Part shown: piece by piece, positions 24,148 through 59,319 of the stretch | Layout: every line of letters begins with the position of its first letter | Position numbering within the stretch: position 1 is the first letter of the stretch | Origin: Nitrososphaerota archaeon | GTDB taxonomy: Archaea; Thermoproteota; Nitrososphaeria; Nitrososphaerales; Nitrosopumilaceae | Assembly: GCA_028866655.1 (NCBI GenBank) | Contig: JAGWHQ010000004.1 | Span: 7,674 to 71,673 of the forward strand | Direction: 5' to 3' | Length of the DNA stretch: 64,000 bases | Made by a program: the position numbers and the translations under genes | The notes under the pieces: model-generated | What the model was told of the DNA's origin: nothing | What the model saw: only the letters and a program-made list of their open reading frames with translations | Database searches by the model: none

Positions 24148-24469
24148 GGTTATGTACAAGTCTGCAAAAAATAATTTTAAAGAAAAATTTTTGAAAAAAT
24201 TGTTTAAAGAAAAATTTAAAAAATAATTTTAAAAAATAAATCAAAAAATATTATTTGAAAAGATCAAATTTGATTTTGTCTCATGATCATCAGTCAAAAA
24301 AATGAATCAACGTGAGAGATTACAATATGCTAATTAGAATATTTTGGTATTAATGAAATATAAAATAGAATTTTTATATTATATCATGATGAAATAACGA
24401 ATTAATAGATTGTACACTCATAGTTAAACCTTTTTATTTATGTTAATCGAAATTCTTATAAGATATTAT

Positions 24470-25384
24470 ATGACTCGCGAATCTTTTGGTTCTGGTGGCC
24501 GTTGCCCTCGTTGTGGAAAAGGCCCAATGGTAACTGATAACACTACAGGAGAAATGTTTTGCGGAGGTTGTGGTTTTGTACTTACAGAGCGCGTAGAAGA
24601 ATCCGGTCCAGAATGGAGATCATTTTCTAAAGAAGAACATGAAGATCGAAGTAGAACTGGAACTCCTACTTCACTTGCAATGCATGACATGGGACTTGCA
24701 ACAATAATTGGTCCTGCTGACAAGGATGCATCAGGAAAACCACTTTCTGCATCAATGAAGAGTACAATAGAGAGACTCAGAACTTGGGATAGCAGAAGCC
24801 AAGTTCATGAACCAGTAGATAGAAACTTTAGACAAGCCTTCAGCGAACTTGATAGATTAAAAGATAAACTTGCATTATCTGATGCAGTAATTGAAAAGAC
24901 TGCTTACATTTACAGAAAAGCACTTGACAAAGGTCTTGTCAGAGGCAGATCAATTCCAGGACTTGTAGCTGCTGCACTATACGCAGCATGTAGAGATACT
25001 GAAACTCCAAGGACACTTACAGATGTTGCAAATGGAATCAACATCAAACGAAAAGATGTTGCCAGATGTTACAGATTATTATTGCGAGAACTTGATCTGA
25101 AAATGCCAGTTGTTGATCCAATAAAATGTGTAGCAAGAATTGCAAGTAAAGCAGGCTTGAGCGAGAAAACAAAAAGAAGAGCTTTGCAGATTCTAAAAGA
25201 TGCAGCTGAAATTGAAATTTCAGCTGGAAAAGATCCTATGGGACTTGCAGCTGCTGCACTATACTTGTCATGTGTTATGAACGGAGAAAACAAAACACAA
25301 AAGGATGTTGCACAAGCTGCTGGAGTAACTGAAGTTACAATCAGAAATAGATACAAGGGATTGAAAGAATCACTCAAACTCTAA
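24470..25384 (+). CDS. tfb: Transcription initiation factor IIB
   Basis: Zn ribbon CPRC...CGGC, GPEWRSF, two cyclin repeats, VTEVTIRNRYK; start ATG 24470. Confidence 0.97.
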   Translation: MTRESFGSGGRCPRCGKGPMVTDNTTGEMFCGGCGFVLTERVEESGPEWRSFSKEEHEDRSRTGTPTSLAMHDMGLATIIGPADKDASGKPLSASMKSTIERLRTWDSRSQVHEPVDRNFRQAFSELDRLKDKLALSDAVIEKTAYIYRKALDKGLVRGRSIPGLVAAALYAACRDTETPRTLTDVANGINIKRKDVARCYRLLLRELDLKMPVVDPIKCVARIASKAGLSEKTKRRALQILKDAAEIEISAGKDPMGLAAAALYLSCVMNGENKTQKDVAQAAGVTEVTIRNRYKGLKESLKL

Positions 25385-25436: not shown

Positions 25437-25568
25437 AAAAATTAATGGCGTGGCCCTTGTTCGTAGACAAACAGAGATTACCTCTTTTTATCCCACCCAT
25501 GTGGGATTCACAATTCAAGTCTACGGAGCCACGCTCTCTTAAGCAGTAGATTTTACATCTTTCTGCAT
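25437..25568 (-). ncRNA. Candidate structured RNA, element E1 (homologue of E2)
   Basis: ATGCAGAAAGATGTAAA 5' motif; stems GCGTGGCTC/GGGCCACGC, CGTAGAC/GTCTACG, ATCCCAC/GTGGGAT, AGAG/CTCT; own TATA box and 3' T-tract. Confidence 0.7.
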
Positions 25569-25590
25569 TATTTATCATAATACATCATCA

Positions 25591-25598
25591 TATTTATC
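25591..25598 (-). promoter_or_regulatory. TATA box of element E1 (GATAAATA, preceded by BRE-like ATGAAAT)
   Basis: Ends 23 nt before the conserved ATGC start at 25568. Confidence 0.55.
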
Positions 25599-25768
25599 AT
25601 TTCATATGTATTTTTACATATTTTTAAAATATTTACATAAAATATTTCAATAAACATAGACATTGTTTACGATCACTAGATTGCTATAATATGCATTTTT
25701 GAAGATTCATCAAAATGAGTTGCTTGTCTTCGACAGACTAATTTGATACAGTATGTGATCAGACATGT

Positions 25769-26512
25769 ATGAAACTTTCTGGCAAGGTTGCAATTGTTAC
25801 AGGAGGTAGTAGAGGCATTGGAAAAGCTACGGCAATGTTACTTGCACAACATGGAGCAAATGTAGTAATCACATCAAAAGACAATACCAATCTTCAAAAC
25901 GCTGCAGCTGAAATGAAAAATGTTATAGCAATATCTGGAGACATTAGAAAAAATACAGATGTAGAAAATGTTGTAAAAAATACTTTGGAGACTTTTGGTA
26001 AGATTGACATTCTAGTAAATAATGCAGGTATTTTTCCCAAAGTAAAACCTCTACATGAAATTTCTGAAGAAGAATGGAATGACATCATAGATGTAAATTT
26101 AACGGGGCAGTTTCGTTTTACAAAAGCCGCAATACCTCATTTGATGAAAACGAGTGGTTGTATTGTCAATGTTTCATCAGATGCGGGGTTGAAATCATTT
26201 GAAAATTTTGAAGCAGATGCATATACTGCATCAAAGGGAGCACTAGTTTTACTTACAAAAGCATGGGCCGTAGAATATGCCAAATACAAGATACGTGTGA
26301 ATTGCGTCTGCCCTGGAATTGTGGAAACTGATATGACAAAGCCATATCTTGGAAATGAAGCTGACAGAGAAATGGCAATAGCAGAGCATCCAATTGGGAG
26401 AATAGGAATACCGGAGGATGTTGCAAGGGCAATATTCTATCTTGTTTCAGAGGATTCTTCATGGATTACAGGTGCAATTTTACCCGTAGATGGTGGAATC
26501 ATTACTAAATAA
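25769..26512 (+). CDS. Short-chain dehydrogenase/reductase (FabG-like)
   Basis: TGGSRGIG, NNAG, YTASK. Confidence 0.92.
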   Translation: MKLSGKVAIVTGGSRGIGKATAMLLAQHGANVVITSKDNTNLQNAAAEMKNVIAISGDIRKNTDVENVVKNTLETFGKIDILVNNAGIFPKVKPLHEISEEEWNDIIDVNLTGQFRFTKAAIPHLMKTSGCIVNVSSDAGLKSFENFEADAYTASKGALVLLTKAWAVEYAKYKIRVNCVCPGIVETDMTKPYLGNEADREMAIAEHPIGRIGIPEDVARAIFYLVSEDSSWITGAILPVDGGIITK

Positions 26513-26554
26513 TTATACTAATAAAATTAATAGAACCTATTCTAAGGTTATATC

Positions 26555-26773
26555 GTGACCCCAAAAAAGAAGAGTGCACTCAAGGTAATTATCATGCTTT
26601 CAATCATTTGGTTTGCCTCAGCATTACCTGTACCTTTCATATGGTCCAATCCAAGTCCTCAACAATCTGAACAGTTCAAGACCTATCTGGAAATAGCAGC
26701 CTTGATTTCTGTGCCATTTATTGCAATGGCAATTGCCTGGACATTAAAGCCAGAACTTACCACACGTGGCTAG
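26555..26773 (+). CDS. Small two-TM membrane protein
   Basis: 72 aa, GTG start, two hydrophobic helices. Confidence 0.6.
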   Translation: MTPKKKSALKVIIMLSIIWFASALPVPFIWSNPSPQQSEQFKTYLEIAALISVPFIAMAIAWTLKPELTTRG

Positions 26774-27513
26774 CCAAGAAACTCTACTGCCCCTAGTCCT
26801 TCGGGGGTTGCTTTAATCCACCTGGTTCTTCCAATCCTTTCAACTTCAATGAATCTCCACTCGTTTAGAAGTGGCTGGATGATATTTTTATCAAGACTTG
26901 CAAATCTTGCTTGTTGAAAATTTTCCTCTCTTGCATTTACCATGATGAGTTTTCTTTCGTATGCAATTTTTGCCATCTCCTTCTTGGTTATTTTTCCATT
27001 ATTTTCTTGTATTATTTTCAAGGCCTGTACCAGTACAGGTTTTGGAGTATGAATTTCATAAGCTGGCAACTTGACAACTGATTTGAGTCCAGATGATAGC
27101 TGTTCCCCCTTTACACTAGAGTAACTTTCCGGTTCTGCATAATATGGAGTAAGTTTTATCTTTCCTTGAAACATCATGCATGCCATCATACATGCAATTG
27201 CTTGTATTTTTGATCCAGAAGAACAGTTTACAAAAATATCATTGCCATCTTCTTTTTGTACAATTTCTCGTAATGCCTTTAGGATCTTGAATAGATCAAA
27301 TCTATTGGAATGTGCTACTTGGACTTCGATCTTTTCTTTTTTTAGCTGAGCTCGAATTTTTTCCATGAATCCTTGGGCTTGATCCTTTGATGGTTCTGCG
27401 TGCATCAATAGCCACACTCTATCGGCTTTCATTTGTTTTGCAGGAATTGCAATTCGATCAATTTCAAAACCTACAGGAGCTACATGTACACGGAGGTTTA
27501 CTATTTTACTCAT
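26770..27513 (-). CDS. CARF-like domain + wHTH transcriptional regulator (HFX_2341/DUF6293, Csa3-like)
   Basis: VHVAPVGFEIDRI, IFVNCSSGSKIQAIA, C-terminal wHTH ending RTRWIKATPEG; start ATG 27513. Confidence 0.75.
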   Translation of the reverse strand: MSKIVNLRVHVAPVGFEIDRIAIPAKQMKADRVWLLMHAEPSKDQAQGFMEKIRAQLKKEKIEVQVAHSNRFDLFKILKALREIVQKEDGNDIFVNCSSGSKIQAIACMMACMMFQGKIKLTPYYAEPESYSSVKGEQLSSGLKSVVKLPAYEIHTPKPVLVQALKIIQENNGKITKKEMAKIAYERKLIMVNAREENFQQARFASLDKNIIQPLLNEWRFIEVERIGRTRWIKATPEGLGAVEFLG

Positions 27514-27649
27514 GTTAGTATGTATAGTTATCATACTATGGTGATGATATATAATAATTGTGCATTGTATACAGAAACATGCAACAAAAACTCACATCAG
27601 AGCAAAGCAAAGTCTCTGTTTATCCTAGAATAAGATCAGTCTTTGAGAA

Positions 27650-28210
27650 CTAATTCTTCATCCACGGGGTAGATTCCAAGTAATCTATGGATTTTATCAT
27701 CTCGTCAAGCTTTGTAGCAACCGCAGTCACTGCTTGAAATTCTTCATACATCATTTTTTCTTCATCTTGTGATAGTACTTGTTTTTCTGCAGTGTCAAAG
27801 AACTTGTCTTCTTTTGTTAAATGATCATCGAGGTAAATTGCATACGCCTTGAGAAATCTTGCAACAGGTTCTCTTTGATCTTCTCCTGACTTCCACTTTT
27901 GTAGATGCTTTGAAATGTTTGATGCGATTCTTCTTCCAAATTCATGTTCAATCATAAACACTCGGATCTCTTGCTTGAGAGAATCATAACTTGCAACACA
28001 AGGAAAATACTGGTCTTCTTCTCTTGCATAATGTATTGCATCCAAAAATTCCGACATGATTGAAACCATTATTTGCATATCAGAAAATGGGATATCATTA
28101 TTTTCATTTAATGCAGTATAACATCTAGTGATTATTTTTTCTAGTCTGCGTATTTGTCTATGATCGTTTCGTAATGTTTCAGTTCCGCTCATATCAGGTC
28201 CTGATATCAT
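27650..28210 (-). CDS. Hemerythrin (HHE) domain protein
   Basis: NDHRQI, IHYAREED, IEHEFG, DHLTKED. Confidence 0.85.
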   Translation of the reverse strand: MISGPDMSGTETLRNDHRQIRRLEKIITRCYTALNENNDIPFSDMQIMVSIMSEFLDAIHYAREEDQYFPCVASYDSLKQEIRVFMIEHEFGRRIASNISKHLQKWKSGEDQREPVARFLKAYAIYLDDHLTKEDKFFDTAEKQVLSQDEEKMMYEEFQAVTAVATKLDEMIKSIDYLESTPWMKN

Positions 28211-29049
28211 TAGGGATTTACTGTAAATAGTATTACCTTTTTTGGGTTGTATTGGATTATGGCAAAATGTGGCATGGAAGAGCCAACACCATAATATCCA
28301 GCAGGACCTCCAAGGCCTAATCGTATGAGATAATCATTTGTTGGATTGATTACAATTTCTTTGCTTTCCAATATGTGTCCTGCAATTTTTTCTTTTTTTG
28401 GTTCAAGATTAGAGTAGATCTCACGAATTTTACCTGCTTGATGGACTAGGGCAGCCTCCATGTGCTGATGTCCGCACAGTATGATATGATTACGTACATG
28501 CTTTCCTACTTCTCCAAAAGCAGACGATGCTTTGTAATGATATCCGTGATAGCTAAAGAACTCAAAGCCTTCATCGGTGAGTCGTTGCCAATTTCTTTGA
28601 TATAACCAGGCTTCACTATTGGCATTTTTTGGGGTTATCTTCTTGGGATCCAATGGTCCTCCATGAACACAGAAAAGACCATTTTTTGTATCTACAAACT
28701 CTTGATTGCCAAATGTACCATCTTTATTCTGTTTGAAGAATGCCAAGTCTTCAGAATCAAGCTTTTCATGTGCATCCATGCTTTCAAGAGAACTGGCACT
28801 CACTTTTTTTCCACTCAAGAATCCTTCGTCATGGTTACCTATCACAGAAAATATTGGATAGTTTTTTTCAAGGGAGCGTAATTTTGATATGACTTGTTTT
28901 GGGTGAATGCCACGTTCAAGCAAGTCACCTAGATTGATGATTCTAGAAAAAGAACCATACTTTTTTACAAACTCATCACTTGATACAGTCTGGATTATCA
29001 GGTCAAGCCCGTTGAGGTCTGCATGAATGTCAGAAAAAACTAGATCCAA
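28210..29049 (-). CDS. Calcineurin-like metallophosphoesterase
   Basis: SDIHAD, LGDLLE, GNHD, VHGG, CGHQH. Confidence 0.88.
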   Translation of the reverse strand: MDLVFSDIHADLNGLDLIIQTVSSDEFVKKYGSFSRIINLGDLLERGIHPKQVISKLRSLEKNYPIFSVIGNHDEGFLSGKKVSASSLESMDAHEKLDSEDLAFFKQNKDGTFGNQEFVDTKNGLFCVHGGPLDPKKITPKNANSEAWLYQRNWQRLTDEGFEFFSYHGYHYKASSAFGEVGKHVRNHIILCGHQHMEAALVHQAGKIREIYSNLEPKKEKIAGHILESKEIVINPTNDYLIRLGLGGPAGYYGVGSSMPHFAIIQYNPKKVILFTVNP

Positions 29050-29273
29050 TACAACTTGTTGTTTTTTAGCCTAATTTGAAATTTTTTGTGTCAAGAATTG
29101 GTTTGTAGAAAGATGTATGTGTAGATTTGTGTCCAGAATTGATATGATGTCATTCTAGGATTTTAGAATAAGAAAGTAAAAGTTTGATCTCAAATAAATA
29201 ACAAGTTTGGGATACATTATCAAATTAGCTTGCATCCTCATTATCCTACCCTGTGGGGATGTCAGCCGATTTA

Positions 29274-30191
29274 TTATTGAGAATCAATTTTTTGAACAGA
29301 CTGTTTTGGGATATTAAGTTCTTGAAATGTGTCAGGATGAATTATCTTGGTCAAAATTTCAAGACCTGTTACAGTTCTTGGACCTGGTTTGCTAAAGTAC
29401 TCATTTGCATTCACTGCATAAACTTCTCCTCTGGTTACTGCCTTGATATTTTTCCATTTGTTGTTTTCAAGTAATTTTTCATATTCATCAAGTGTTCGTG
29501 ATACATCAAATCCACATGGCATTAGAATTATGATATCAGGATCAAATTGTATCATTTCTTCAATCTGTATTTTTCTTGATCTGTCTCCAGTTGCGCTTAT
29601 TCCGTTTATTCCACCTGCAATTTCCACCATTTGAGGAACCCAATGGCCTGCTGAGAAGAACGGATCAAGCCATTCTATGCATAACACCTTTGGTCTTGAA
29701 ATTTTTGGGGTATTTTTGATATAGTCAATTCTTTTCTTTAATTTTATAACAAAGTCTTTTGCCTTGTCTTGTTTTCCTACTTTATCTCCTACCTCAATGA
29801 TGTTTTCCAGTATGCCGTCAAGATTTTTTGGATCTAGAACAAGGACCTCTGGTTTGCCTCCAAGCAGTGTGACTGCTTTGTTTATCTCTCTTGTATAAGG
29901 GGAACATACTTCACAGATTCCTTGAGCTACAATCAGATCTGGATTTGCTTGCTTGAGGACTTGTTCATCTAATATGTAGATGTCTTTTCCTGCATTTACT
30001 AGTTCCATTACCTTGCTGTCAATTTCTTGGCTAGACATTTTTTCTGGGTCAAAGGAGGAATGGATAACCCTTGGCTTTGCCTTGGCCTCTGTTGGATAAT
30101 TGCATTCATGTGTTACTGCTAATACTTGATCTCCCACTCCTAGCTCATACAATATTTCAGTTGCACTTGGAAGAAAGGAGACTAGTTTCAT
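29274..30191 (-). CDS. BtuF-like cobalamin/iron-chelate binding protein, no signal peptide
   Basis: VSFLPSATEILYELG, THEC, PDLIV, EWLDP...GHWVP, RPGPR-like KPGPR. Confidence 0.85.
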   Translation of the reverse strand: MKLVSFLPSATEILYELGVGDQVLAVTHECNYPTEAKAKPRVIHSSFDPEKMSSQEIDSKVMELVNAGKDIYILDEQVLKQANPDLIVAQGICEVCSPYTREINKAVTLLGGKPEVLVLDPKNLDGILENIIEVGDKVGKQDKAKDFVIKLKKRIDYIKNTPKISRPKVLCIEWLDPFFSAGHWVPQMVEIAGGINGISATGDRSRKIQIEEMIQFDPDIIILMPCGFDVSRTLDEYEKLLENNKWKNIKAVTRGEVYAVNANEYFSKPGPRTVTGLEILTKIIHPDTFQELNIPKQSVQKIDSQ

Positions 30192-30305
30192 AGATGTATC
30201 ATCTATGATATTTGTTTTAAACATGTATTCAAGTTTTAGATGATTACAAATTTCTCTTATACATATTCCTCAAAACTTAAGAATAGCCAAGGCTCGATTT
30301 GGTTG

Positions 30306-31181
30306 ATGATTGATTTTACAGTTATTGGTGGACCGTCTTCAGAACAATTAGCAAAAAAGATTGCCTCTAAATTAAAATCAAAGTTTATCAGTTGTGAACT
30401 GCGGACCTTTCCAGACGGGGAAAGCAAGGTCACACTCAAGGGAAAACCTAGTGGAAAGATTCTGGTAGTACAATCAATCTATCCTCCAGTTGACTCGAAC
30501 CTGCTTCGCTGTCTTGCAATAACATCGCAAGCAAGGACATTTTCTTCTCACGTGTATGTTATCATACCATATATCGGATATGCAAGACAAGACAGGCAAT
30601 TTCTTCCAGGCGAGATTATTACAATGGAACTTGTTGCAAAAATGTTCAAGTCGGCAGGTGCAACCAAGGTAATTGTGGTTGATATCCACAGTACTACCGC
30701 ACTAGAGCATTTCCAGATTCCTGCAAAAAATATCAGTGCAGTTGAAGAGCTTGCAAAACATTTCAAGAAAATGTCACTTAACTCTCCTCTTGTAGTATCA
30801 CCAGACAAGGGAGGAGTAGAACGAGCAAGAAACTTTGCAAAATCACTCGGTGTTGATTATATCGCACTAGAAAAACACAGAGACCGAAAGACTGGAAATG
30901 TTGCAATAAAATCCAAAGGCCTTGATGGAGTCAAGGGTCGAGACATTATACTAGTTGATGACATGATAAGTACTGGAGGCAGCATTGTAAAAGCTGCAGA
31001 ATTTTTAAAGAAACAAAAAGGCGGCAAGATCTATGCATGCTGCACACATGCATTACTAATTGGAGATGCAGAGAAAAATATCATAAAAGCTGGAGTTACA
31101 AAGATAATCAGCACAAATACCATACCAGGTAAGACATCAGTTGTTGATGTCTCATCAATAATTGCAAAGGCAATAACCTGA
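30306..31181 (+). CDS. prs: Ribose-phosphate pyrophosphokinase
   Basis: FPDGES, YARQDR, VSPDKGG, VDDMISTGG; start probably ATG 30306. Confidence 0.95.
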   Translation: MIDFTVIGGPSSEQLAKKIASKLKSKFISCELRTFPDGESKVTLKGKPSGKILVVQSIYPPVDSNLLRCLAITSQARTFSSHVYVIIPYIGYARQDRQFLPGEIITMELVAKMFKSAGATKVIVVDIHSTTALEHFQIPAKNISAVEELAKHFKKMSLNSPLVVSPDKGGVERARNFAKSLGVDYIALEKHRDRKTGNVAIKSKGLDGVKGRDIILVDDMISTGGSIVKAAEFLKKQKGGKIYACCTHALLIGDAEKNIIKAGVTKIISTNTIPGKTSVVDVSSIIAKAIT

Positions 31182-32114
31182 ATGTCAAGCTTTTTTGTAT
31201 TACAGAAACAATACGAAGACCTTGCAAGGGATGAGATAATTGCAATATCAAAAAGTTATGATCCAAAGTCAAACATAAAATCAGAGCCAAGACTTGTCAT
31301 GGTATCATCAAAGGTTCCATGGCAAAAGATAGCAAGCAGGGCAACATTTGCAAGATATTCTGGAACCATAGAAAATACATTTGATGATATTACAAAAATC
31401 GACTTGTCTATACCTACACCAAAATCATTTGTATGCAGGACAATAAACTTGTCATCAAAAAATACAGGCTCGTCTGCACTTGAAAGACAAGCAGGTGGGA
31501 TACTCTCAAAAAGATGGGGCTCCAAGGTTTCCCTCTCAAACCCTCATGTTATAGTATATCTCATCATTACAGATTCCAAAAAATATCTAGGATATGCAGA
31601 CTGTCAGATTTCACCAAGTCATCCAAAAAAGATAATCAAGCACCCGCATGAACTTGATACAAAACTTGCAAGATGTATTGTTAATTTATCAGGATTAAAG
31701 GAAAAAGACACTCTCTGTGATCCTTTTTGTGGCACTGGAACAATTTTGCTTGAAGCTGAATCCATGGGGATTAATGGTATCGGAATGGATTTTGATAAAA
31801 CAATGTGCAAGATAACAAGAAAGAACTTGGCTGCAAATGGATTTGATTCCCAGGTGATAAATTCTGGCTATGAAAAAATACAGGACATCATGGGTACAAT
31901 AGACGGTATTGTTACCGACTTGCCATATGGAATATCATCAAGGTCATCTGTCTCTCCAAAGAAATTGATTCAAGATTTTGTCTCAGTCATACCAAAGAGA
32001 AAAAAACTTGTAATTGTATACAAGAAGGGTCTTGAAGTGGATGATATCAGCAAAGCAAAGAAATACGAGATCTACAGACACAAGAGCTTGACAAGAGTGA
32101 TTGCGGTAAGATGA
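31182..32114 (+). CDS. THUMP-domain tRNA guanine-N2 methyltransferase (Trm11/TrmG10-like)
   Basis: [11 protein letters not shown] motif, TDLPYG. Confidence 0.8.
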
Positions 32115-33010
32115 AGCTAGTATTTTTGGGAACATCAGCAGCACAACCAACTGCAGAGCGTGGCATGACATGCATCTGTTTGGTACTTGACAGGGAGATA
32201 CTGATGTTTGATGCAGGAGAAGGCGCACAGATTGCATTTTCAAAAGCTAAACTTGGCTGGAATAAAAAAATGAAAATATTTGTGACACACTTACATGGAG
32301 ACCATTGTGTTGGGATACTTGGCCTATTGCAGACCATGTCGTTGCAGAACAGGACAGAGTCTGTTGACATCTACGGTCCAACTGGAATTGAAGAGTTTAT
32401 CGCGGCAAATCTCAAGATACTAAATTTTGGCCTGACATTTCCTGTCAGAATAACTAGAATCAAGGAGGGACTAGTCTTTGATGATTCTGGATTTAGCGTT
32501 CACGTATGTGAGGCAGAGCATTCCATTCCTGCCTACTCGTATTTATTTACAGAAAAAGACAGGCCTGGCAAGTTTTATCCTGAGAAAGCAAAGGAGCTTG
32601 GCATCCCAGAGGGAAAGCTCTGGCATGATCTTCAAAGCGGCAATGAGGTAAAAGTTGGTGATAAACTGGTAAGACCATCTGATGTAACTGGAGAAAAACG
32701 TCATGGCATCAAGATTGGCATATCAGGGGACACAAGACCTACTGCCAAGCTTGTAGAATTTTTCAAGGGTTGCAATTACATGACATTTGATTCTACATAT
32801 TCTGATGCATTACAAGACAAGGCAAAAGAGAATTTCCACTCGACATCAAAGGAAGCAGCAGAGCTTGCCAAAAAAGCAGGTGTCTTAAATCTTATCTTGA
32901 CACACTTTTCTGCAAGGTATGAAGATGTGCAAGAGCTTGTCAATGAAGCAAAGACAATTCATGATTCCGTTACTGCTGCAAAAGATCTCTTAGAGATTGA
33001 CATCAAGTGA
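32111..33010 (+). CDS. rnz: Ribonuclease Z
   Basis: FLGTSA, THLHGDH, exosite [23 protein letters not shown]. Confidence 0.95.
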
Positions 33011-33735
33011 AAATGTGGGATATCATATCTAACAAATTAAGACAGGCAGAAAAAATTGTATTTGTAACAGGAGCAGGAATTTCCCAAGAGAGTGGAATTC
33101 CTACATTTCGCGGAAAAGATGGTTTCTGGAGAAAGTACGATCCAATGAAGCTTGCAACAATAGATGCATTCTATGAAGATCCAAAACTTGTATGGGAATG
33201 GTATGAAGAGAGGAGAAAAAACATTCTAGATGCAAATCCAAACCTTGGTCATGTTTCCATTGCAGAACTTGAAAAACATAAAAAAATTTCTGTCCTGACA
33301 CAAAACATTGATGGTCTTCATCAGAAGGCCGGAAGCTCGCATGTTTACGAATTGCATGGAAGTATCATTACAATCAAGTGCACCGTATGTGATTTCAAAG
33401 ATTCCATCACATCTGGATTTTCTCATCTTCCACCACTCTGCAAATGTGGAAACATACTGCGACCTGATGTTGTATGGTTTGGTGAAGCTTTACCGCAGGA
33501 TGTGTGGAAGTCTGCAATGGAAGAGGCAGTCTCTTGTGACATCATGATTGTTGTTGGAACCTCACTTGTAGTATCTCCTGCAAATCTATTGCCAGTATAT
33601 GCCAAGCAAAATGGAGCCACTCTAGTTGAGGTAAATATTGAGGATACTCCCATGTCGTCAAACATGGACCTGTCCCTTAGGACCTCTGCTGCAAAGGCAC
33701 TTCCAGGACTAGTTGATATTGTATCCAGGCTCTAG
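33007..33735 (+). CDS. cobB: NAD-dependent protein deacylase (sirtuin)
   Basis: [23 protein letters not shown], Zn CxxC pairs, RPDVVWFGE. Confidence 0.95.
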
Positions 33736-33850
33736 TTTGTGTTTTTTCAGATTAATTTGATTAGTTGTGAGTAAAATGTTGATTATTTTGGATATGAGAA
33801 CAATAATTTATACAAAATAAAATATATTCATGTAAGAAATCATACTAATT

Positions 33851-33858
33851 ATTAAATA
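33851..33858 (+). promoter_or_regulatory. TATA box of element E2 (ATTAAATA)
   Basis: Ends 23 nt before the conserved ATGC at 33881, same spacing as E1. Confidence 0.55.
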
Positions 33859-33880
33859 AGAGAATAACGTATAAAGAACA

Positions 33881-34024
33881 ATGCGGAAAGATGCAAATTC
33901 TGGCAAATGAATTTGCGTGATCCTGTGAAAAATGGTACATAGTGAAGTACAATTCGTTGTACGAAGCGGCAAGAGAAAGCTTTTGCCTATACAGGGTCAC
34001 GCCATCACACCTTTTCCTGTTTTT
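33881..34024 (+). ncRNA. Candidate structured RNA, element E2 (homologue of E1)
   Basis: ATGCGGAAAGATGCAAA 5' motif; 12-bp stem 33915-33926/33991-34002; GTACAA-TTCG-TTGTAC; GGCAAGAG-AAAG-CTTTTGCC; 3' T-tracts. Confidence 0.7.
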
Positions 34025-34066
34025 ATAAAATTCAAGTTCAATCGATACTGAAATTTTCTTTGTATT

Positions 34067-34939
34067 TTATTGTGATAAAATTCCAGTTATGGTAGAATTT
34101 TGCACATCTGATGGTGCATATGCAGATGCATGCAATGTTCCGTAAATTGCATTGTTTATTGTCATTTCTATGATGTGTGGAGTGTTTGGAACATCGTTAA
34201 CCTGGGTTGAAAACTGGGAAGAATAAAATGTTCCAGAGAACAAGACAGTGTCACTGTTTTTCATTGTGACTGTAACTGATTTTGTCTGGCCAGATGTATC
34301 ATCAAAATTTAACACTGCATTGTTTCCTTGGTTTACCATGGTAAGCTTGACTGTTTGATAGTAAGATGGAAGAGATGGTAAGGTAGTTGAGCTTGTACCA
34401 CCATCACTAGAATAAGGAGAGATTATCAGACCACTTGGAACATCTACTGGTGGAGAATTTGGTTTTGCTGTAAGTTTTGTTACCTGCACAGGATCATCTA
34501 CATTTGATTGACATTGATCAAGTTGAATTATTCCAGTTAGCTGTTTTATTCCATTTATTGTCTGGGCCAATTCTGGAACAGAGATTTGACATGTATTACC
34601 ATTTTTTTCAAAGACCTGTCCAGTATAGTTTTGTCGAGATACATATTGTGGAGCAAGTTGATAAACAGAAGTTGAATTGTTATTTGGAGCCATATTTAGA
34701 ATAGAATTTGCACTAGACAATATACCAGAATTGTTTTCAAGCAATTTTGCACCAAGGCCTACGTCCTTGACTGCTAGCTTGGAATCATTAATCACTTGCT
34801 TGCTGGTTGCAACTTGATCAATCTTGCCTTTTACAGTATCAATTGATGATGGTATTTTCTGAAAGAATTTTGATGAGCTTGGTACAAAGATAGCTACTGC
34901 AGCTATAATGATTCCAATAATGATCAGTTTACCTATCAA
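34067..34939 (-). CDS. Membrane-anchored exported hypothetical protein
   Basis: N-terminal TM, S/T/P/N-rich beta domains. Confidence 0.7.
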   Translation of the reverse strand: MIGKLIIIGIIIAAVAIFVPSSSKFFQKIPSSIDTVKGKIDQVATSKQVINDSKLAVKDVGLGAKLLENNSGILSSANSILNMAPNNNSTSVYQLAPQYVSRQNYTGQVFEKNGNTCQISVPELAQTINGIKQLTGIIQLDQCQSNVDDPVQVTKLTAKPNSPPVDVPSGLIISPYSSDGGTSSTTLPSLPSYYQTVKLTMVNQGNNAVLNFDDTSGQTKSVTVTMKNSDTVLFSGTFYSSQFSTQVNDVPNTPHIIEMTINNAIYGTLHASAYAPSDVQNSTITGILSQ

Positions 34940-35007
34940 ACAGTTACTTTTCTTGAGGTATTCATAAAAAAGCGCAAATGCACACTAGTTGAGCAAGTGT
35001 AGTAAAT

Positions 35008-35430
35008 TTATCCAGTTATTTGAGTCAGATCAGGTGCAAGCCAGTCCACTACCTTCTCAAGGTCCTTTGAATGAAGTATCACCTTGATTGGGCCCATGGC
35101 AGACTCTTCTGCTTCCTCGCATACTGCAATTATATCCACATAGGCTGCCTGCTTGTTGAGGTAAAACCAAGTGGTGTCTCCTTTTGTATTAAATCGCATC
35201 TGTCTTCGGTAGATCTTGTTGGTTCGATGTTTTTTGATTGTCTCTTGGATTTTTACAAGCGATTCCAACTGGTTTGAGGTTGCCTTGATGCTTCCTTCCT
35301 TGTATTGGTAATCTGTTTCTAGTATGACATGCGATACAGCAAGTCTGACTTTATCTGGATCTTCGGATGGATTTACTGCTGCATAGACTTCGATCTTGCA
35401 GGTAACATTTGGAATCTTCAATTCATCCAA
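35008..35430 (-). CDS. UPF0201 RNA-binding protein (ribosomal L5-like fold)
   Basis: VNPSEDPDKV, FYLNKQAAYV, MGPIKV. Confidence 0.85.
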   Translation of the reverse strand: MDELKIPNVTCKIEVYAAVNPSEDPDKVRLAVSHVILETDYQYKEGSIKATSNQLESLVKIQETIKKHRTNKIYRRQMRFNTKGDTTWFYLNKQAAYVDIIAVCEEAEESAMGPIKVILHSKDLEKVVDWLAPDLTQITG

Positions 35431-35963
35431 CCTTTGATGACTCGATATGAAGCGTCAACAAGTTCTTGAATTGTCATGTTGTTATTTGAAATTGTTTCGT
35501 CTGCAAGTGCAATTGATTCGCTCATGCCCACTCCAATTTCTCTTGAATCCCTTTTTGTAAAATCTTCACGATCAGATGGAGCATCAGATCTGCCCCTTTC
35601 TGTTAGGAATTTGTATCGTATATCACCAGATGCATGGATTGCAAGAACTTTGACTGTACCAATTTTTTTCAATACATCAACTTCTGCAAGTGATCGTACC
35701 CCATCTACAAGTATAACATCAGACTTGGAATTTTGTATTCCATCTTTTATGAGCTCAGCCACTGCACCTGGACCATTTTTTTCTCGCAGCTCAATCATAA
35801 GCTTGCCAAGATTAGCCCCTGTTGGATCTATCTGTCTTCTTGTTGCTTCTGCCCTTACAGCATCACCCATTGTAATTTTATCAAAGCCTTTTGATTTCAA
35901 ACCCTCAGCTATTGTGGTCTTTCCAGCTCCTGGCATTCCTGTAAGACATACGATTAGTTTCAC
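35418..35963 (-). CDS. P-loop nucleotide kinase (COG0237, dephospho-CoA kinase-like)
   Basis: LTGMPGAGKT, MGDAVR, DGVRS, ERGRSD; start probably GTG 35963. Confidence 0.8.
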   Translation of the reverse strand: MKLIVCLTGMPGAGKTTIAEGLKSKGFDKITMGDAVRAEATRRQIDPTGANLGKLMIELREKNGPGAVAELIKDGIQNSKSDVILVDGVRSLAEVDVLKKIGTVKVLAIHASGDIRYKFLTERGRSDAPSDREDFTKRDSREIGVGMSESIALADETISNNNMTIQELVDASYRVIKGWMN

Positions 35964-36036
35964 ACTCACAAACTTTATCCTCCAGTCTATGAAGCTACCG
36001 GAAATTATTATAGATGCCACAATCTGAATTCCACTA

Positions 36037-36576
36037 ATGCGTGCCTTTATTGCAGTAGAGATTCAGGATGAGAGTGTACTTGATGCAATTACCAAGATTC
36101 AATCTGAATTCAAGATAAGGGCAACACCAGTAAACAAAAAAAATATGCATTTTACATTGCTTTTCTTGGGAGAGATAACAGAAGAGACTGCTGCAAATGT
36201 AAAAAAAGCACTAGATACAATTTCATTTAAAAAAATAGATGTAAACTTTACACATGTTGGAGCATTTCCAAATCCAAGATCTGTACGAGTTATTTGGATT
36301 GGCGTAGATGAAACATCTTCAAAACAGTTGGTAGAGCTTGCAATGCAAGTAGAAAAAAAATTGTCGCCTCTTGGATTTAGGTCTGACAAGCCTTTCAAGC
36401 CACACCTAACAATATTTAGAATAAAGAACAAGATAGATGATATTTCAGACATGATGGAAAAATTCAAGAAAATTGATCTAGGAAGATATACCATGACAGA
36501 ATTAAAGTTCAAGCAAAGCATCTTAACCCCTAGCGGGCCAATATACTCTGATTTACAGGTGATTTTAGCTAAATGA
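36037..36576 (+). CDS. thpR: RNA 2',3'-cyclic phosphodiesterase (2H family)
   Basis: MRAFIAV, HFTL and HLTI motifs, GPIY. Confidence 0.93.
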   Translation: MRAFIAVEIQDESVLDAITKIQSEFKIRATPVNKKNMHFTLLFLGEITEETAANVKKALDTISFKKIDVNFTHVGAFPNPRSVRVIWIGVDETSSKQLVELAMQVEKKLSPLGFRSDKPFKPHLTIFRIKNKIDDISDMMEKFKKIDLGRYTMTELKFKQSILTPSGPIYSDLQVILAK

Positions 36577-37907
36577 GGAACGTTCTGGAGCAGGCAAGAA
36601 AGATATCAATTCCCACAAGACAAGAAGAGGAAAAGATAGAAGCACTTGCAAAAAGTCTTCTTGACTTGGTAAAAAAAGAGATTGTAAAATATCCAGAGAT
36701 CAGCTCAGTAGAGCTTGGTGGATCTTTTGCAAAAGGAACTTGGCTCAAGGGCAAGCTAGACCTTGACATTTTTGTCAAGATGAAAAAAGACACAAACGAA
36801 AAACAATTCGAAGAGATTGGCAGAGAAATTGGTTTTGAATCCATGAAAAAGTTTGGCCCCTATGTTAGATATTCAGAACATCCATACGTTGAGGCAGTAG
36901 TTCAATGCACCAAGGTAAATGTCGTTCCTTGCTATGATGTGGAAATAGGTCAGTGGAAGAGTGCAGCTGACAGGTCATCGTTTCATACCAAATTCATACT
37001 TGAAAAATTAGATGCAGAAAAAAAGAATGAGGTAAGACTGCTCAAAAAGTTTCTCAGGGGAATTGGAATCTATGGTGCAGAAATTGCAATAGAAGGGTTT
37101 GGAGGATATGTCTCTGAGGTTTTAATTTACCATTACGGAAGTTTTATGAAAACTTTGGAGGCTGCCGCAAACTTTTCCCAAGGACAAATCATTGGTAGCC
37201 CCACAAAAAAATTTGAGACAGCATTAGTATTGATAGACCCAATAGATAGCAACAGGAATCTTGGTACTGCAATCTCTGCTCAAAACCTTGGCAAGTTCAT
37301 ACTTGCAGCAAGGGCATATCTGAAAAAACCTTCACTTGAATTTTTCAATGGTAAAAAATTGTTGCCAAACACAAAGAACCTACAAAATGTTCTAGTTGTC
37401 AAGTTCAAGTACAAACCTAGAAGTCCTGATATCATTTGGGGTCAGGTAAAAAGGGGGGCAACTGCACTTTCTGGCCAACTTGAGCTTGGTGGATTTCAGG
37501 TATTGCGTAAGGGTGCCATAACAGATGAAAAGTCAGAGGCTGCAATGCTTTTCCTATTACATTCTACAACAATTGAAAAATTCATGGTCAAAAATGGTCC
37601 AGACGTATTTAGAAAACCAGAATCAGAGAACTTTATTTTGAGAAATTCCAAGAATAACATAACCTGGGTTGACGAACAAGGAAGGATCTTGTCACTGCAG
37701 CAAAGAGAATTTTATGATGCAAAAAAATTCCTCCAGTCACTTTTGAAGAAAAATCTGACAAAAGCAGGCATCCCAAGCGGTATTATTTCAGACATGAAAT
37801 GTGGCTTTGTGATATCAGTGGGTCATCAGGTGACAAGCAAATCCATTAAAAAGGCTCTGGCTGAGTTAACCTCTACCAATGAACTCATCTTTGGTTCCAA
37901 CAAGTAA
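36573..37907 (+). CDS. cca: Archaeal class I CCA-adding enzyme
   Basis: GSFAKGTWLKGKLDLDIF, EHPYV, DRSSFH, GFGGYVSE, IDPIDSNRN. Confidence 0.95.
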   Translation: MRNVLEQARKISIPTRQEEEKIEALAKSLLDLVKKEIVKYPEISSVELGGSFAKGTWLKGKLDLDIFVKMKKDTNEKQFEEIGREIGFESMKKFGPYVRYSEHPYVEAVVQCTKVNVVPCYDVEIGQWKSAADRSSFHTKFILEKLDAEKKNEVRLLKKFLRGIGIYGAEIAIEGFGGYVSEVLIYHYGSFMKTLEAAANFSQGQIIGSPTKKFETALVLIDPIDSNRNLGTAISAQNLGKFILAARAYLKKPSLEFFNGKKLLPNTKNLQNVLVVKFKYKPRSPDIIWGQVKRGATALSGQLELGGFQVLRKGAITDEKSEAAMLFLLHSTTIEKFMVKNGPDVFRKPESENFILRNSKNNITWVDEQGRILSLQQREFYDAKKFLQSLLKKNLTKAGIPSGIISDMKCGFVISVGHQVTSKSIKKALAELTSTNELIFGSNK

Positions 37908-43371: not shown

Positions 43372-43448
43372 TGGTGGGGCCGGCCGGACTTGAACCGGCG
43401 ACCTCTAGCACCCCAGGCTAGCATCATACCAAGCTAGACTACGGCCCC
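43372..43448 (-). tRNA. tRNA-Pro(GGG), CCA encoded
   Basis: GGGGCCG acceptor stem, anticodon arm CTAGC-CTGGGGT-GCTAG, T-loop GGTTCAAGTCC, ends CCCCACCA. Confidence 0.97.
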
Positions 43449-58077: not shown

Positions 58078-59319
58078 GTGGATAGAGAAGAAACGATGGT
58101 GTGTGGGTTCATGACAAAAGATCCAATTGATAAATTATTAGATGATGCACAAAGTGGCAAGTCATTATTTAAAAATCGTGAAGTCCTACATTTTACATTT
58201 ATTCCTGATGTAATTTTACACCGCGAGGACGAACAAAAAAAGGTCACCCAATCACTATTACCATTATTAAAAAAATCACGTCCTTCCAATCTACTAGTTT
58301 ACGGAAAACCAGGTACAGGAAAGACATTGGTAGTAAAGAAAGTTCTTGGTAAGATACAAGAACGAGTAAAGGATAACTCTTTTCCAATTCAATTGCTTTA
58401 TGCTAACGCAAAAGAAGAGACTACTCTCTATGGATTACTAGTAAAATTAGGCAGACAATTGGGTCTTACATCCCAAAAGGAACTACCTTCTACAGGGCTT
58501 TCAATTAGTGAAGTATTCAATCGTATTATTGCAGTAATTGAGAAGAATGAGCTAAACACAGTGTTCGTAATTGATGAGATTGATTATCTCGTAGAACTTG
58601 TCTCTAAATCAGGTAAAGATGTATTTTATTCACTAACCAGAGCCAATGAGAGGCTAAAAAAGGGCACATTAACCCTGATAGGAATTTCCAACGATCTCAC
58701 ATTCAAAGAACGCCTAGATCCTAGGGTCCTAAGCAGTCTAAGTGAGGAAGAGGTAATCTTTACCAATTATACCGTCGAACAGATCAACGAAATTCTTGAT
58801 GAGCGTATCAAGGTCGCCTTTGTACCAAATACTGTAGAGCAGGCAGCCCTAAACCTATGCTCTGCCATGTCTGGCCAAGAACATGGGGATGCAAGAAGGG
58901 CAATTGACCTTTTACGTGTTGCAGGTGAGATTGCCGAGCGTGAACAATCTGATACAGTAAAGGAAGACCACATACGAAGAGCCTCTCTTAAGATGGAGGA
59001 AGATAAGGAAACCACTGCATTGAATTCATACCCATTACATGAAAAATTACTCATACTTGCAGTAATGAAGGCAAGCGGAAACACAACTGGTGAGATATAC
59101 CAATCATACAAAAATCTCTGTAAAATTACAAGACAAAAAGAACTAACCCAGCGTAGAATTACACAGATGCTAAGTGAGATAGAAATGACCGGATTAATCA
59201 CAGGAAAAATTGTTCATCAAGGAATGCATGGAAGAACAAAAAAATTCAATCTCACACTAAATGCTGATACTGTAAAAAAAGCATTCAAAGAAGATCTAAC
59301 CTTAGAAGATCTCTTGTAA
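58078..59319 (+). CDS. cdc6: Orc1/Cdc6 replication initiator
   Basis: YGKPGTGKT, VIDEID, GDARRAIDLLR, C-terminal wHTH GRTK; alternative start ATG 58111. Confidence 0.97.
   Translation: MDREETMVCGFMTKDPIDKLLDDAQSGKSLFKNREVLHFTFIPDVILHREDEQKKVTQSLLPLLKKSRPSNLLVYGKPGTGKTLVVKKVLGKIQERVKDNSFPIQLLYANAKEETTLYGLLVKLGRQLGLTSQKELPSTGLSISEVFNRIIAVIEKNELNTVFVIDEIDYLVELVSKSGKDVFYSLTRANERLKKGTLTLIGISNDLTFKERLDPRVLSSLSEEEVIFTNYTVEQINEILDERIKVAFVPNTVEQAALNLCSAMSGQEHGDARRAIDLLRVAGEIAEREQSDTVKEDHIRRASLKMEEDKETTALNSYPLHEKLLILAVMKASGNTTGEIYQSYKNLCKITRQKELTQRRITQMLSEIEMTGLITGKIVHQGMHGRTKKFNLTLNADTVKKAFKEDLTLEDLL

Follow-up and report, generated by a model that had tools for sequence, protein, structure and literature searches.

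Paralogous genes for a folded RNA of about 125 nucleotides in Nitrosotalea, one of them kept beside the main TFB gene of the Nitrosopumilaceae

The Nitrosopumilaceae are among the most abundant archaea of oceans and soils and drive nitrification. What kind of gene is formed by two short, similar elements, E1 and E2, is the question raised by the DNA analysed here, a 64-kb stretch (64,000 nucleotides; hereafter the window) of a Nitrososphaerota archaeon of this family (GenBank assembly GCA_028866655.1, contig JAGWHQ010000004.1, positions 7,674 to 71,673). A first-pass annotation, made from the letters alone, had proposed that E1 and E2 belong to an undescribed structured RNA family. We find that E1 (minus strand, 25569–25437) and E2 (plus strand, 33880–34024), which are inverted to each other with 8.3 kb between them, are paralogous, self-contained and apparently separately transcribed genes for a folded RNA of about 125 nt in Nitrosotalea. 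That they represent a real, new RNA gene family with this fold is very probable.

Each element has the same architecture: an archaeal BRE/TATA promoter with its TATA box ending at position −23, a 34-nt 5′ region, a Y-shaped domain built as a three-way junction with a closing stem of 9–11 bp, and a T-tract. E1 reads, on the minus strand, AATGCAGAAAGATGTAAAATCTACTGCTTAAGAGA / GCGTGGCTC ... GGGCCACGC / CATTAATTTTT, and E2, on the plus strand, AATGCGGAAAGATGCAAATTCTGGCAAATGAATTT / GCGTGATCC ... GGGTCACGC / CATCACACCTTTTCCTGTTTTT. The likeness of the two consists of short collinear blocks and of structure, with no long repeat, and the pair is not among the 25 longest matches of an ungapped inverted-repeat search of the window. 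The blocks on which the first-pass annotation relied are specific: the shared 5′ motif ATGCRGAAAGATGYAAA (17 nt) and the shared 3′ motif GGGYCACGCCAT (12 nt, each time followed by a T-tract) both occur exactly twice in the 64 kb, with zero mismatches. The distances that it gave were reproduced as well. The TATA boxes ATAAATA of E1 (25591–25597, minus strand) and TTAAATA of E2 (33852–33858, plus strand, within TTAAATAA at 33852–33859) both lie 22 nt ahead of the A of the ATG (25568 and 33881, respectively); the distance from this ATG to GCGTG is 34 nt in both elements; and the enclosed domains are 87 and 88 nt long, with two hairpins each in the minimum-free-energy folds. Two further details hold no further than the window or the genus: the GTGAA ahead of the first hairpin is replaced in orthologues by GTTAA, GTCAA, GTGGA or ATAGA, and of the CCAT 3′ end the CAT after the stem is genus-specific, CCG, CCC or CTG being found elsewhere. 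The small 4-bp 5′ hairpin had to be given up, as it shows no compensatory change and is broken in other genera, for example in Nitrosarchaeum; the 5′ motif is not accounted for by that hairpin.

The predicted E1 transcript (25437–25569, minus strand) starts at A25569 or A25568, has a body reaching to 25446 and ends in a T5 tract (25437–25441). The predicted E2 transcript (33880–34024, plus strand) starts at A33880 or A33881, has a body to 34004 and is followed by T-tracts at 34012–34015 and 34020–34024. A covariance model built from E1 orthologues alone (R1) matches E1 at 25446–25569 with 154.6 bits, and the corresponding E2 model (R2) matches E2 at 33880–34004 with 156.4 bits. Motif and covariance-model searches find no further copy in the window.

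The fold consists of the closing stem P1, extended in E1 by P1b, and of two hairpins, P2 and P3. Minimum-free-energy folds of both elements are far more stable than expected (z = −5.3 for E1 and −3.8 for E2; 0 of 200 shuffled sequences as stable). In E1 (all minus strand), the P1 5′ strand GCGUGGCUC (25526–25534) pairs with GGGCCACGC (25448–25456), which is followed by an invariant C; all cells of the alignment are paired here (100%) and two pairs have changed on both sides. P1b is formed by CGUAGAC (25519–25525) and its partner at 25462–25468, beside a 3′ bulge, AACAA (25457–25461). Hairpin P2 (UCCCAC AUGG GUGGGA, 25491–25506) is free in sequence and keeps its pairing, whereas hairpin P3 (AGAGGUAAUCUCU, 25473–25485) is near-invariant in Nitrosotalea, Nitrosarchaeum and Nitrosopumilus. 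In E2 (all plus strand), P1 joins GCGUGAUCCUG (33915–33925) to CAGGGUCACGC (33992–34002), the covariation being that counted below in the E2 alignment; P2 (GUACAA UUCG UUGUAC, 33947–33962) exchanges UA and CG in four sequences; and P3 (GGCAAGAG AAAG CUUUUGCC, 33968–33987) is kept in sequence among E2 orthologues.

Covariation backs all four helices of the Y domain (P1, P1b, P2 and P3). In the E1 alignment (23 sequences, five genera), 15 of 35 pairs have changed on both sides, compared with 6.2 ± 1.4 in shuffled alignments, none of which reaches 15 (0 of 500), and 97% of cells are paired, against 31–45% when the partners are slid. Alignment of E1 and E2 together gives 18 double-changed pairs (12.4 ± 1.3 shuffled) with 94.7% of cells paired, and E2 alone, aligned with R2 (32 distinct sequences), gives 5 (1.3 ± 0.9 shuffled). 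Four of the seven pairs of the E1 P1b have changed on both sides, with UA and CG exchanged in 11 of the 23 sequences, as seen in the series CGUAGAC/GUCUACG, CGCAGAC/GUCUGCG, CGCGGAC/GUCCGCG and CACGGAC/GUCCGUG. The E1 P2 has compensatory changes in all seven pairs (CCCAC/GUGGG, CCGC/GCGG, UCCG/CGGA and UUCCG/CGGAA among them). Conserved G–U pairs place the RNA on the predicted strand. Selection on RNA structure, as first proposed, is therefore borne out by covariation well above both the shuffled and the slid controls.

R1 also provides the link between the two elements. It recovers all E1 copies at 85–155 bits and E2, over its full length, at 25–30 bits (26.6 bits for the E2 of the window; E about 0.004 in 632 kb). 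Since the model was built without E2, this full-length match shows that E1 and E2 are homologous in overall architecture.

Within E1 the constraint is unevenly distributed. Its first ~27 nt, the GCGU/ACGC at the base of P1 with the next C, and hairpin P3 (AGAGGUAAUCUCU) are invariant; P2 varies freely in sequence yet stays paired, and the junction strands J1–J3 are variable while the helices are kept. Variable junctions beside invariant helical elements favour contact sites for protein or RNA on the helices and argue against a ligand pocket or a ribozyme core. In the 5′ region, a longer E1 hairpin (GCAG/CUGC plus AGAU/AUCU) is a candidate, with two compensatory pairs and some breaks. E2 has a leader hairpin of its own, GCAAAUUC/GAAUUUGC (33893–33916, plus strand), whose last two bases are shared with P1; it shows one compensatory change, U–A to A–U, in one lineage (L303). 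E1 contains two look-alike hairpins on the minus strand, AGAU-GUAAA-AUCU at 25548–25560 and the P3 AGAG-GUAAU-CUCU at 25473–25485, which might both be bound by the same partner. In addition, P3 looks like a Shine–Dalgarno sequence (GAGGU; GGAGGU in N. okcheonensis) and might conceivably mimic one, AGAGGUAAUC being set against GGAGGUGAUC at the 3′ end of 16S rRNA.

Both elements occupy fixed genomic sites. E1 sits between the 3′ end of a TFB gene (24440–25384, plus strand) and the start of an SDR gene (25769, plus strand), on the opposite strand, and E2 sits between the 3′ ends of a Sir2 gene (33007–33735, plus strand) and a 290-aa open reading frame (ORF; 34067–34939, minus strand). A convergent gene thus lies downstream of each element, so that neither E1 nor E2 is a 5′ leader. 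N. okcheonensis, N. devaniterrae and several metagenome-assembled genomes (MAGs) share the synteny of the entire block, including the positions of E1 and E2, and both elements are conserved in all of the related genomes that were inspected. With 83–96% identity to its counterparts in Nitrosotalea MAGs, N. okcheonensis and N. devaniterrae, the Sir2 protein beside E2 assigns the window to Nitrosotalea, an acidophilic ammonia-oxidizing archaeon. When one genome per GTDB species was scanned with a pattern, 52 loci were returned, about 10 of them chance matches in G+C-rich bacteria (about 11 were estimated for chance) and the rest in Nitrosotalea-type genomes, where dozens of genomes hold one E1 and one E2 each and no other type. 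Further, more divergent members come from metagenomes scanned for just the 5′ motif.

Conservation follows the transcript closely. Between the window and N. devaniterrae, the E1 body is 96.8% identical, its flanks ~71% and the SDR coding DNA 87%; between the window and a more diverged lineage (L244), these values are 74.8%, ~49% and 68.5%. In another lineage (L057/L058, 10749–10871), E2 has been inverted in the same intergenic space along with its TATA box, its end reading CACGCCG; inversion together with the promoter is the behaviour expected of an autonomous transcription unit.

How far does the family extend? The TFB beside E1 is probably the main one in these archaea and under extreme constraint: in L244, whose SDR protein is only 74% identical to that of the window, the TFB protein is still 99% identical. 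Because TFB is so conserved, TFB clusters collapse, and the search for homologues reached other genera. Using R1 over 9-kb TFB loci, we found full-length homologues in Nitrosarchaeum limnium SFB1, Cenarchaeum symbiosum A, GCA_023265135, a lineage with 97% TFB identity and a Nitrosopumilus MAG. These five distant homologues score 29–74 bits (E = 7e-5 to 5e-15) and all have the same setting, on the opposite strand, with a 142-aa ORF on one side and the SDR gene on the other. The TATA box is found at −28 to −22 also in Nitrosarchaeum, Cenarchaeum and two further lineages (L308 and L309), and five genera share this geometry. P3 is letter-identical (AGAGGUAAUCUCU) in Nitrosarchaeum and Nitrosopumilus, and the P3 of Cenarchaeum, AGGCGGUAGGCCU, retains the stem through compensation (AGGC GGUAG GCCU). 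The 5′ region differs across genera (AUGCAGAAAGAUG, AUGCCGAAGGAUA and AUGUCGGUAAAUC). The E1 type, seen at this site in five genera, is thus kept beside the main TFB gene throughout the Nitrosopumilaceae, and the copies in related genomes that the first-pass annotation had called for take the family beyond this genome and genus. R1 detects no homologue at the TFB locus of Nitrosocaldus, where the gene order differs, which does not imply absence from the genome as a whole. E2 is closer to the Nitrosotalea-type E1 in 5′ sequence and P1 than the Nitrosarchaeum E1 is, and since it shares these features with E1, it appears to be a duplicate that arose within the Nitrosotalea clade.

A conserved protein of 142–144 aa is encoded between TFB and the E1 homologue in other genera (L306, 4953–5381; L307, 4934–5368; L309, 5007–5441). 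Its sequence suggests a signal peptide or membrane anchor at the N terminus, and it has no match in Pfam or NCBIfam. No homologue of it is encoded anywhere in the window, so that Nitrosotalea is without it at the E1 site.

Public RNA data are consistent with separate transcription. Words of 31 nt (31-mers) from E1 or E2 are present in many metatranscriptome runs. A contig from a mine-drainage metatranscriptome (X29) has its first base at 33880 and its last at 34015; one from rhizosphere RNA (X47), spanning 25439–25572, ends 3 nt from the predicted E1 start; and in a 93-Mb soil metatranscriptome (X28) an E2 contig (33892–33996) has a word depth of 731 and abuts an Illumina adapter. Expression of E1 and E2 is supported, their exact ends being predictions. 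These contigs agree with the fixed spacing from TATA box to AUG and with the T-tracts in indicating a transcription unit of its own, as had been proposed. Several marks of an independent structured noncoding RNA (ncRNA) gene are present here: promoter geometry, conservation confined to the transcript, and covarying helices.

The RNA belongs to none of the described families that we searched. Among the 4,227 families of Rfam 15, E1, E2 and the homologues of Nitrosarchaeum and Cenarchaeum have no match at E ≤ 10, the models without a match including those of transfer RNA (tRNA), transfer-messenger RNA (tmRNA), signal recognition particle (SRP) RNA, RNase P RNA, 5S rRNA, C/D or H/ACA small RNAs (sRNAs), riboswitches and ribozymes; ARAGORN likewise reports nothing at E1 or E2, which agrees with the first-pass view that the elements lie outside known families. 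Individual resemblances were also followed up. An SRP Alu domain has no SRP match at E ≤ 10 to support it, and the strand before P2 varies (UUGUGAA, AUAGAA, AUGAAA and AAAGGUA), so that a UGUNR turn is not conserved; the likeness of GUGGCUC...UGUGAAUCCCAC UUGG GUGGGA to the human Alu/SRP 5′ domain is lost in orthologues. For an H/ACA sRNA, the bases after P1 are a C, variable positions and a U-rich stretch with no conserved ANA, and a two-hairpin three-way junction lies inside; for a C/D sRNA, neither box is conserved, and the ATGATGA near E1 is a promoter sequence that E2 lacks. For 5S rRNA there is no Rfam match, and the helix I that its two ends would form is missing, as no pairing joins the first 34 nt to the 3′ end. 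Ribozymes and riboswitches with three-way junctions are contradicted by the variable J1–J3, the lack of an Rfam match and the convergent genes that follow both units, and readings of GUGAA as part of a hammerhead, H/ACA, C/D or K-turn motif by the lack of conservation of its bases. Closure of the molecule by pairing of the 5′ AAUG with the 3′ CAUU is not kept outside the genus, and pairing of the E1 J1 (GAAUUGU) with the E2 P2 (ACAAUUC) shows no covariation between genomes. A literature search found no description of the E1/E2 RNA; the 2010 motif paper by Weinberg does not mention these organisms, and for the ncRNAs of Nitrosopumilaceae we found almost nothing beyond rRNA, tRNA, SRP RNA and RNase P RNA.

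A feature absent from the first-pass annotation is a conserved miniature ORF (mini-ORF) at the 5′ end. Every homologue has an (N)AUG start, 9–10 sense codons and a stop 0–6 nt before the closing stem. In E1 the mini-ORF encodes MQKDVKSTA* (25539–25568, minus strand; AUG, eight codons and UAA) and overlaps the candidate 5′ hairpin GCAG/CUGC plus AGAU/AUCU; in E2 it encodes MRKDANSGK* (33881–33910, plus strand; AUG, eight codons and UGA), and the E2 leader hairpin holds its stop codon. An AUG at nucleotides 2–4 with an in-frame stop at codon 10 or 11 is found in all 35 distinct leaders of the Nitrosotalea clade and in all five distant homologues, with UAA, UGA and UAG all in use. In three divergent lineages of the Nitrosotalea clade, codon 10 is a sense codon (CGG, CUA and AGA) and codon 11 is UAG, UGA and UAA, respectively. 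The peptides of other lineages are MPKDIIPID* (Nitrosarchaeum), MPMDVISID* (Nitrosopumilus), MSVNPSSID* (Cenarchaeum) and MQKDAIPTA* (L309). A three-frame test of 12 representative leaders found no stop in the other two frames within the last 10 nt before P1, and among all Nitrosotalea-clade leaders one has an off-frame stop there. Shuffling these 10 nt yields an in-frame stop with a probability of 0.10–0.41 per context, which over about five independent contexts is of the order of 1e-3, a value that is suggestive and not proof, the lineages being related. A TATA-like box that ends 21–25 nt before the ATG is also seen at several protein-coding genes of the window, and the AUG of E1 and E2 therefore lies at the position of a leaderless start. 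If the ORF matters at all, it would do so through translation itself and not through its product, a peptide that is not conserved. Functional translation of the mini-ORF is a tentative proposal, somewhat on the doubtful side. E2 contains a second short ORF (33907–33942, plus strand; AUG AAU UUG CGU GAU CCU GUG AAA AAU GGU ACA UAG), which overlaps the stop of the first and crosses the P1 5′ strand.

What might such an RNA do? The reading to which we incline, and which we consider slightly more probable than not, is that of a class of stable structured RNAs from paralogous genes that act in trans as a protein- or ribosome-bound particle coupled to translation. The RNA would work with one or more proteins or with the ribosome, and neither as a classical antisense RNA nor as a cis leader. 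Candidate binding sites are P3, the similar hairpin with 4 bp and a GUAAN loop in the E1 5′ region, and the base of P1. The transcript begins with (N)AUG, as leaderless mRNAs of archaea do, and a ribosome would probably load on its 5′ end, read 9–10 codons and terminate 0–6 nt before P1. Judging from the usual size of the mRNA channel, the terminating ribosome would have to unfold the 5′ hairpin, together with some or all of the 5′ strand of P1, and would press on P1. The fold, partners or stability of the RNA could then report or depend on translation, the peptide being irrelevant, and translation of the mini-ORF may remodel or protect the RNA. As to known particles, the RNA shares with the SRP Alu domain and the Y RNAs, as these are generally known, a Y fold, a G+C-rich closing stem and invariant hairpin or loop sequences, and it is, like them, apparently abundant and deeply conserved in its lineage; unlike them, it has no Rfam match, a variable strand at the UGUNR site and an extra 34-nt 5′ region. 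A tmRNA is similar in being a small stable RNA with an ORF of about 10 codons and a stop next to structured helices, whereas the ends of E1 and E2 form no acceptor stem and have no conserved CCA end; ARAGORN finds no tmRNA, and the ORF is 5′-terminal with an AUG.

Several points weigh against this reading. The covariation alignments were fitted to the model and hence are biased towards structure; despite this, the slid controls and the many double changes make a chance fold unlikely. Two alternative 5′ folds are each ~94% compatible. The evidence of transcription comes from assembled contigs of public runs and not from read-level ends; a number of low-depth RNA-run contigs reach across the promoters as well, suggesting DNA carry-over or read-through, and E1 is not seen in the soil run with very abundant E2 (X28). 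As to the mini-ORF, the shuffle probabilities overstate significance, as the lineages are not independent; conservation shows no codon periodicity (8, 9 and 6 distinct bases at codon positions 1, 2 and 3 across lineages); its bases are also constrained as RNA; and AUG and stop could be by-products of constraints on promoter, initiator and linker. Finally, the neighbouring genes give no clue to a partner protein.

A translation-coupled housekeeping RNA, in which a leaderless cassette of start, nine codons and stop is fused to a protein-binding Y domain, is conceivable and on balance unlikely. Termination against P1 would here switch the fold or the partners of the RNA, so that the cell could read or buffer its capacity of free ribosomes or of initiation, and the constant site beside the main TFB gene could tie this readout to transcription. 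We know of no described RNA in which a leaderless start-to-stop cassette stands beside a stable fold. The idea of such a cassette is directly testable in cultured strains.

Equally improbable, if still to be taken seriously, is that E1 and E2 encode classical sibling sRNAs that base-pair in trans, with the 5′ end or the P3 loop as a seed and the Y domain serving stability and termination. Each element has its own promoter and terminator, the paralogues are alike at their ends and different inside, and neither P3 nor the 5′ region varies within a paralogue. OmrA/OmrB and Qrr offer the obvious parallel, being, as is generally known, unlinked genes with their own promoters and terminators, near-identical ends and diverged middles; E1 and E2 differ from them in their archaeal promoter, in a large covarying three-way junction in place of a simple terminator hairpin, and in a 5′ region with no conserved seed across genera, where it changes as given above (AUGCAGAAAGAUG, AUGCCGAAGGAUA, AUGUCGGUAAAUC). 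The reverse complements of the 5′ motif and of P3 find no complementary site above chance in the window; a near-match with one mismatch at 58749 is on the wrong strand, in the same sense as the mRNA of the overlapping gene. Conservation at family level is, moreover, unusual for antisense regulators. If the RNAs were nonetheless ordinary antisense regulators, they would be only a variant of sibling or dual-function sRNAs.

Action in cis has a slight chance. Each unit points towards the 3′ end of the gene next to it, the linkage of E1 to TFB is kept across genera, and some contigs of the RNA runs extend past the T-tract, as expected if read-through produced an RNA antisense to the TFB or 290-aa gene, or if the elements were bidirectional terminators or insulators. 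In other genera, however, the 142-aa ORF separates TFB from E1, the gene that E2 faces is variable or absent, and a terminator needs neither a promoter nor a conserved 5′ region nor an invariant hairpin sequence. The variability of the E2 partner is seen in L060 (10733–11043), in which the 290-aa ORF downstream of E2 is missing and E2 faces a PF01877 gene.

It is very unlikely that the peptide of 9–10 residues is the product, with the fold acting as a 3′ untranslated region that stabilizes a tiny leaderless mRNA. The AUG at the transcript start and the in-frame stop are present in all homologues, but the peptides differ (MQKDVKSTA, MPKDIIPID, MSVNPSSID and MRKDANSGK), third codon positions are no more variable than others, and the folded part is better conserved than the ORF. 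SgrS/SgrT, RNAIII/hld and archaeal leaderless mRNAs are, by general knowledge, likewise short transcripts that combine an ORF with conserved structure, and the AUG at the transcript start recurs in leaderless genes of the window; the ORFs of E1 and E2, in contrast to SgrS/SgrT and RNAIII/hld, have 9–10 codons and no conserved peptide, only start, length and stop being kept.

Just as poorly placed is a tRNA-like element, in which P1, followed by a discriminator base and CCA, would take the part of an acceptor stem, and cuts by RNase P and tRNase Z would release a Y-shaped RNA of ~90 nt and a 5′ fragment. C-CA does follow P1 in the window, the C after P1 is invariant everywhere, a CCA end is encoded by the tRNA-Pro gene of the window, and genes for a tRNase Z-like protein, a CCA-adding enzyme and LigT are close by. 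Yet the Rfam tRNA model and ARAGORN, with no match for E1 or E2 (E ≤ 10 for the model), find only this tRNA-Pro(GGG) (43372–43448, minus strand), the sole Rfam or ARAGORN match in the window, whose 3′ CCA is gene-encoded. The hairpin loops of E1 and E2 have 4–5 nt, with no T-loop, and P1 is followed by CCA, CCG, CCC, CUG or CCU according to lineage. A tRNA with introns, a permuted tRNA, a 9/4 fold like that of tRNA-Sec and an encoded CCA are set aside in the same way, as no model matches, the loop sizes are wrong and CCA is not kept. The cluster of RNA-processing genes is conserved independently of E2, which is inverted in L057 and has lost its neighbour in L060.

Terminal inverted repeats of a mobile element such as a casposon, or copies of a miniature inverted-repeat transposable element (MITE), which inverted copies flanking 8.3 kb might suggest and which the first-pass annotation had asked to be excluded, are refuted by a housekeeping interior and by a constant copy number, as each of dozens of genomes carries a single E1 and a single E2 at fixed syntenic sites. 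The window has no additional copy, and viral contigs have none. The genes between E1 and E2 include no transposase or integrase: they encode the SDR, a CARF/HFX_2341-like regulator, a hemerythrin, a metallophosphoesterase, a periplasmic binding protein, a PRPP synthase, a Trm-like methyltransferase, an MBL/tRNase Z-like protein and Sir2. In viral contigs, the 5′ motif occurs only inside unrelated coding sequences, and stem-pattern matches, which were not examined, come in about the number expected by chance.

We rate E1 and E2 as a new RNA class conserved across a globally important archaeal family, their nearest analogues being functional and not homologous. The E1 RNA is shared by lineages as far apart as Cenarchaeum and Nitrosotalea, and its conservation exceeds that of the adjoining protein-coding DNA. 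This deep conservation, together with abundance in at least one soil metatranscriptome and the lack of an Rfam match, suggests a core role and not that of an accessory regulator. Present genome annotation passes over this family, for which the two covariance models now give a definition.

Some features of the neighbourhood may be recorded. A run of RNA-processing genes surrounds E2 (31182–37907): a Trm-like methyltransferase (31182–32114), the MBL/tRNase Z-like protein (32111–33010), a PF01877 'RNA binding' protein (35008–35430, minus strand), an AAA_17 kinase (35418–36020, minus strand), a LigT 2′,5′-ligase (36037–36576) and a CCA-adding enzyme (36573–37907); we found no evidence of a functional link between this run and E2. 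In N. okcheonensis, an ORF fragment resembling TnpB (Cas12f1-like_TNB) and a 222-aa ORF lie between the kinase and LigT genes (L001/L002, 12987–13414), an insertion that is absent from the window and from N. devaniterrae. At 1.2 kb from E1, the window encodes a winged-helix protein of the HFX_2341_N / DUF6293 type (26770–27534, minus strand), with weak CARF/Csa3-like matches, which is possibly a ligand-sensing regulator.

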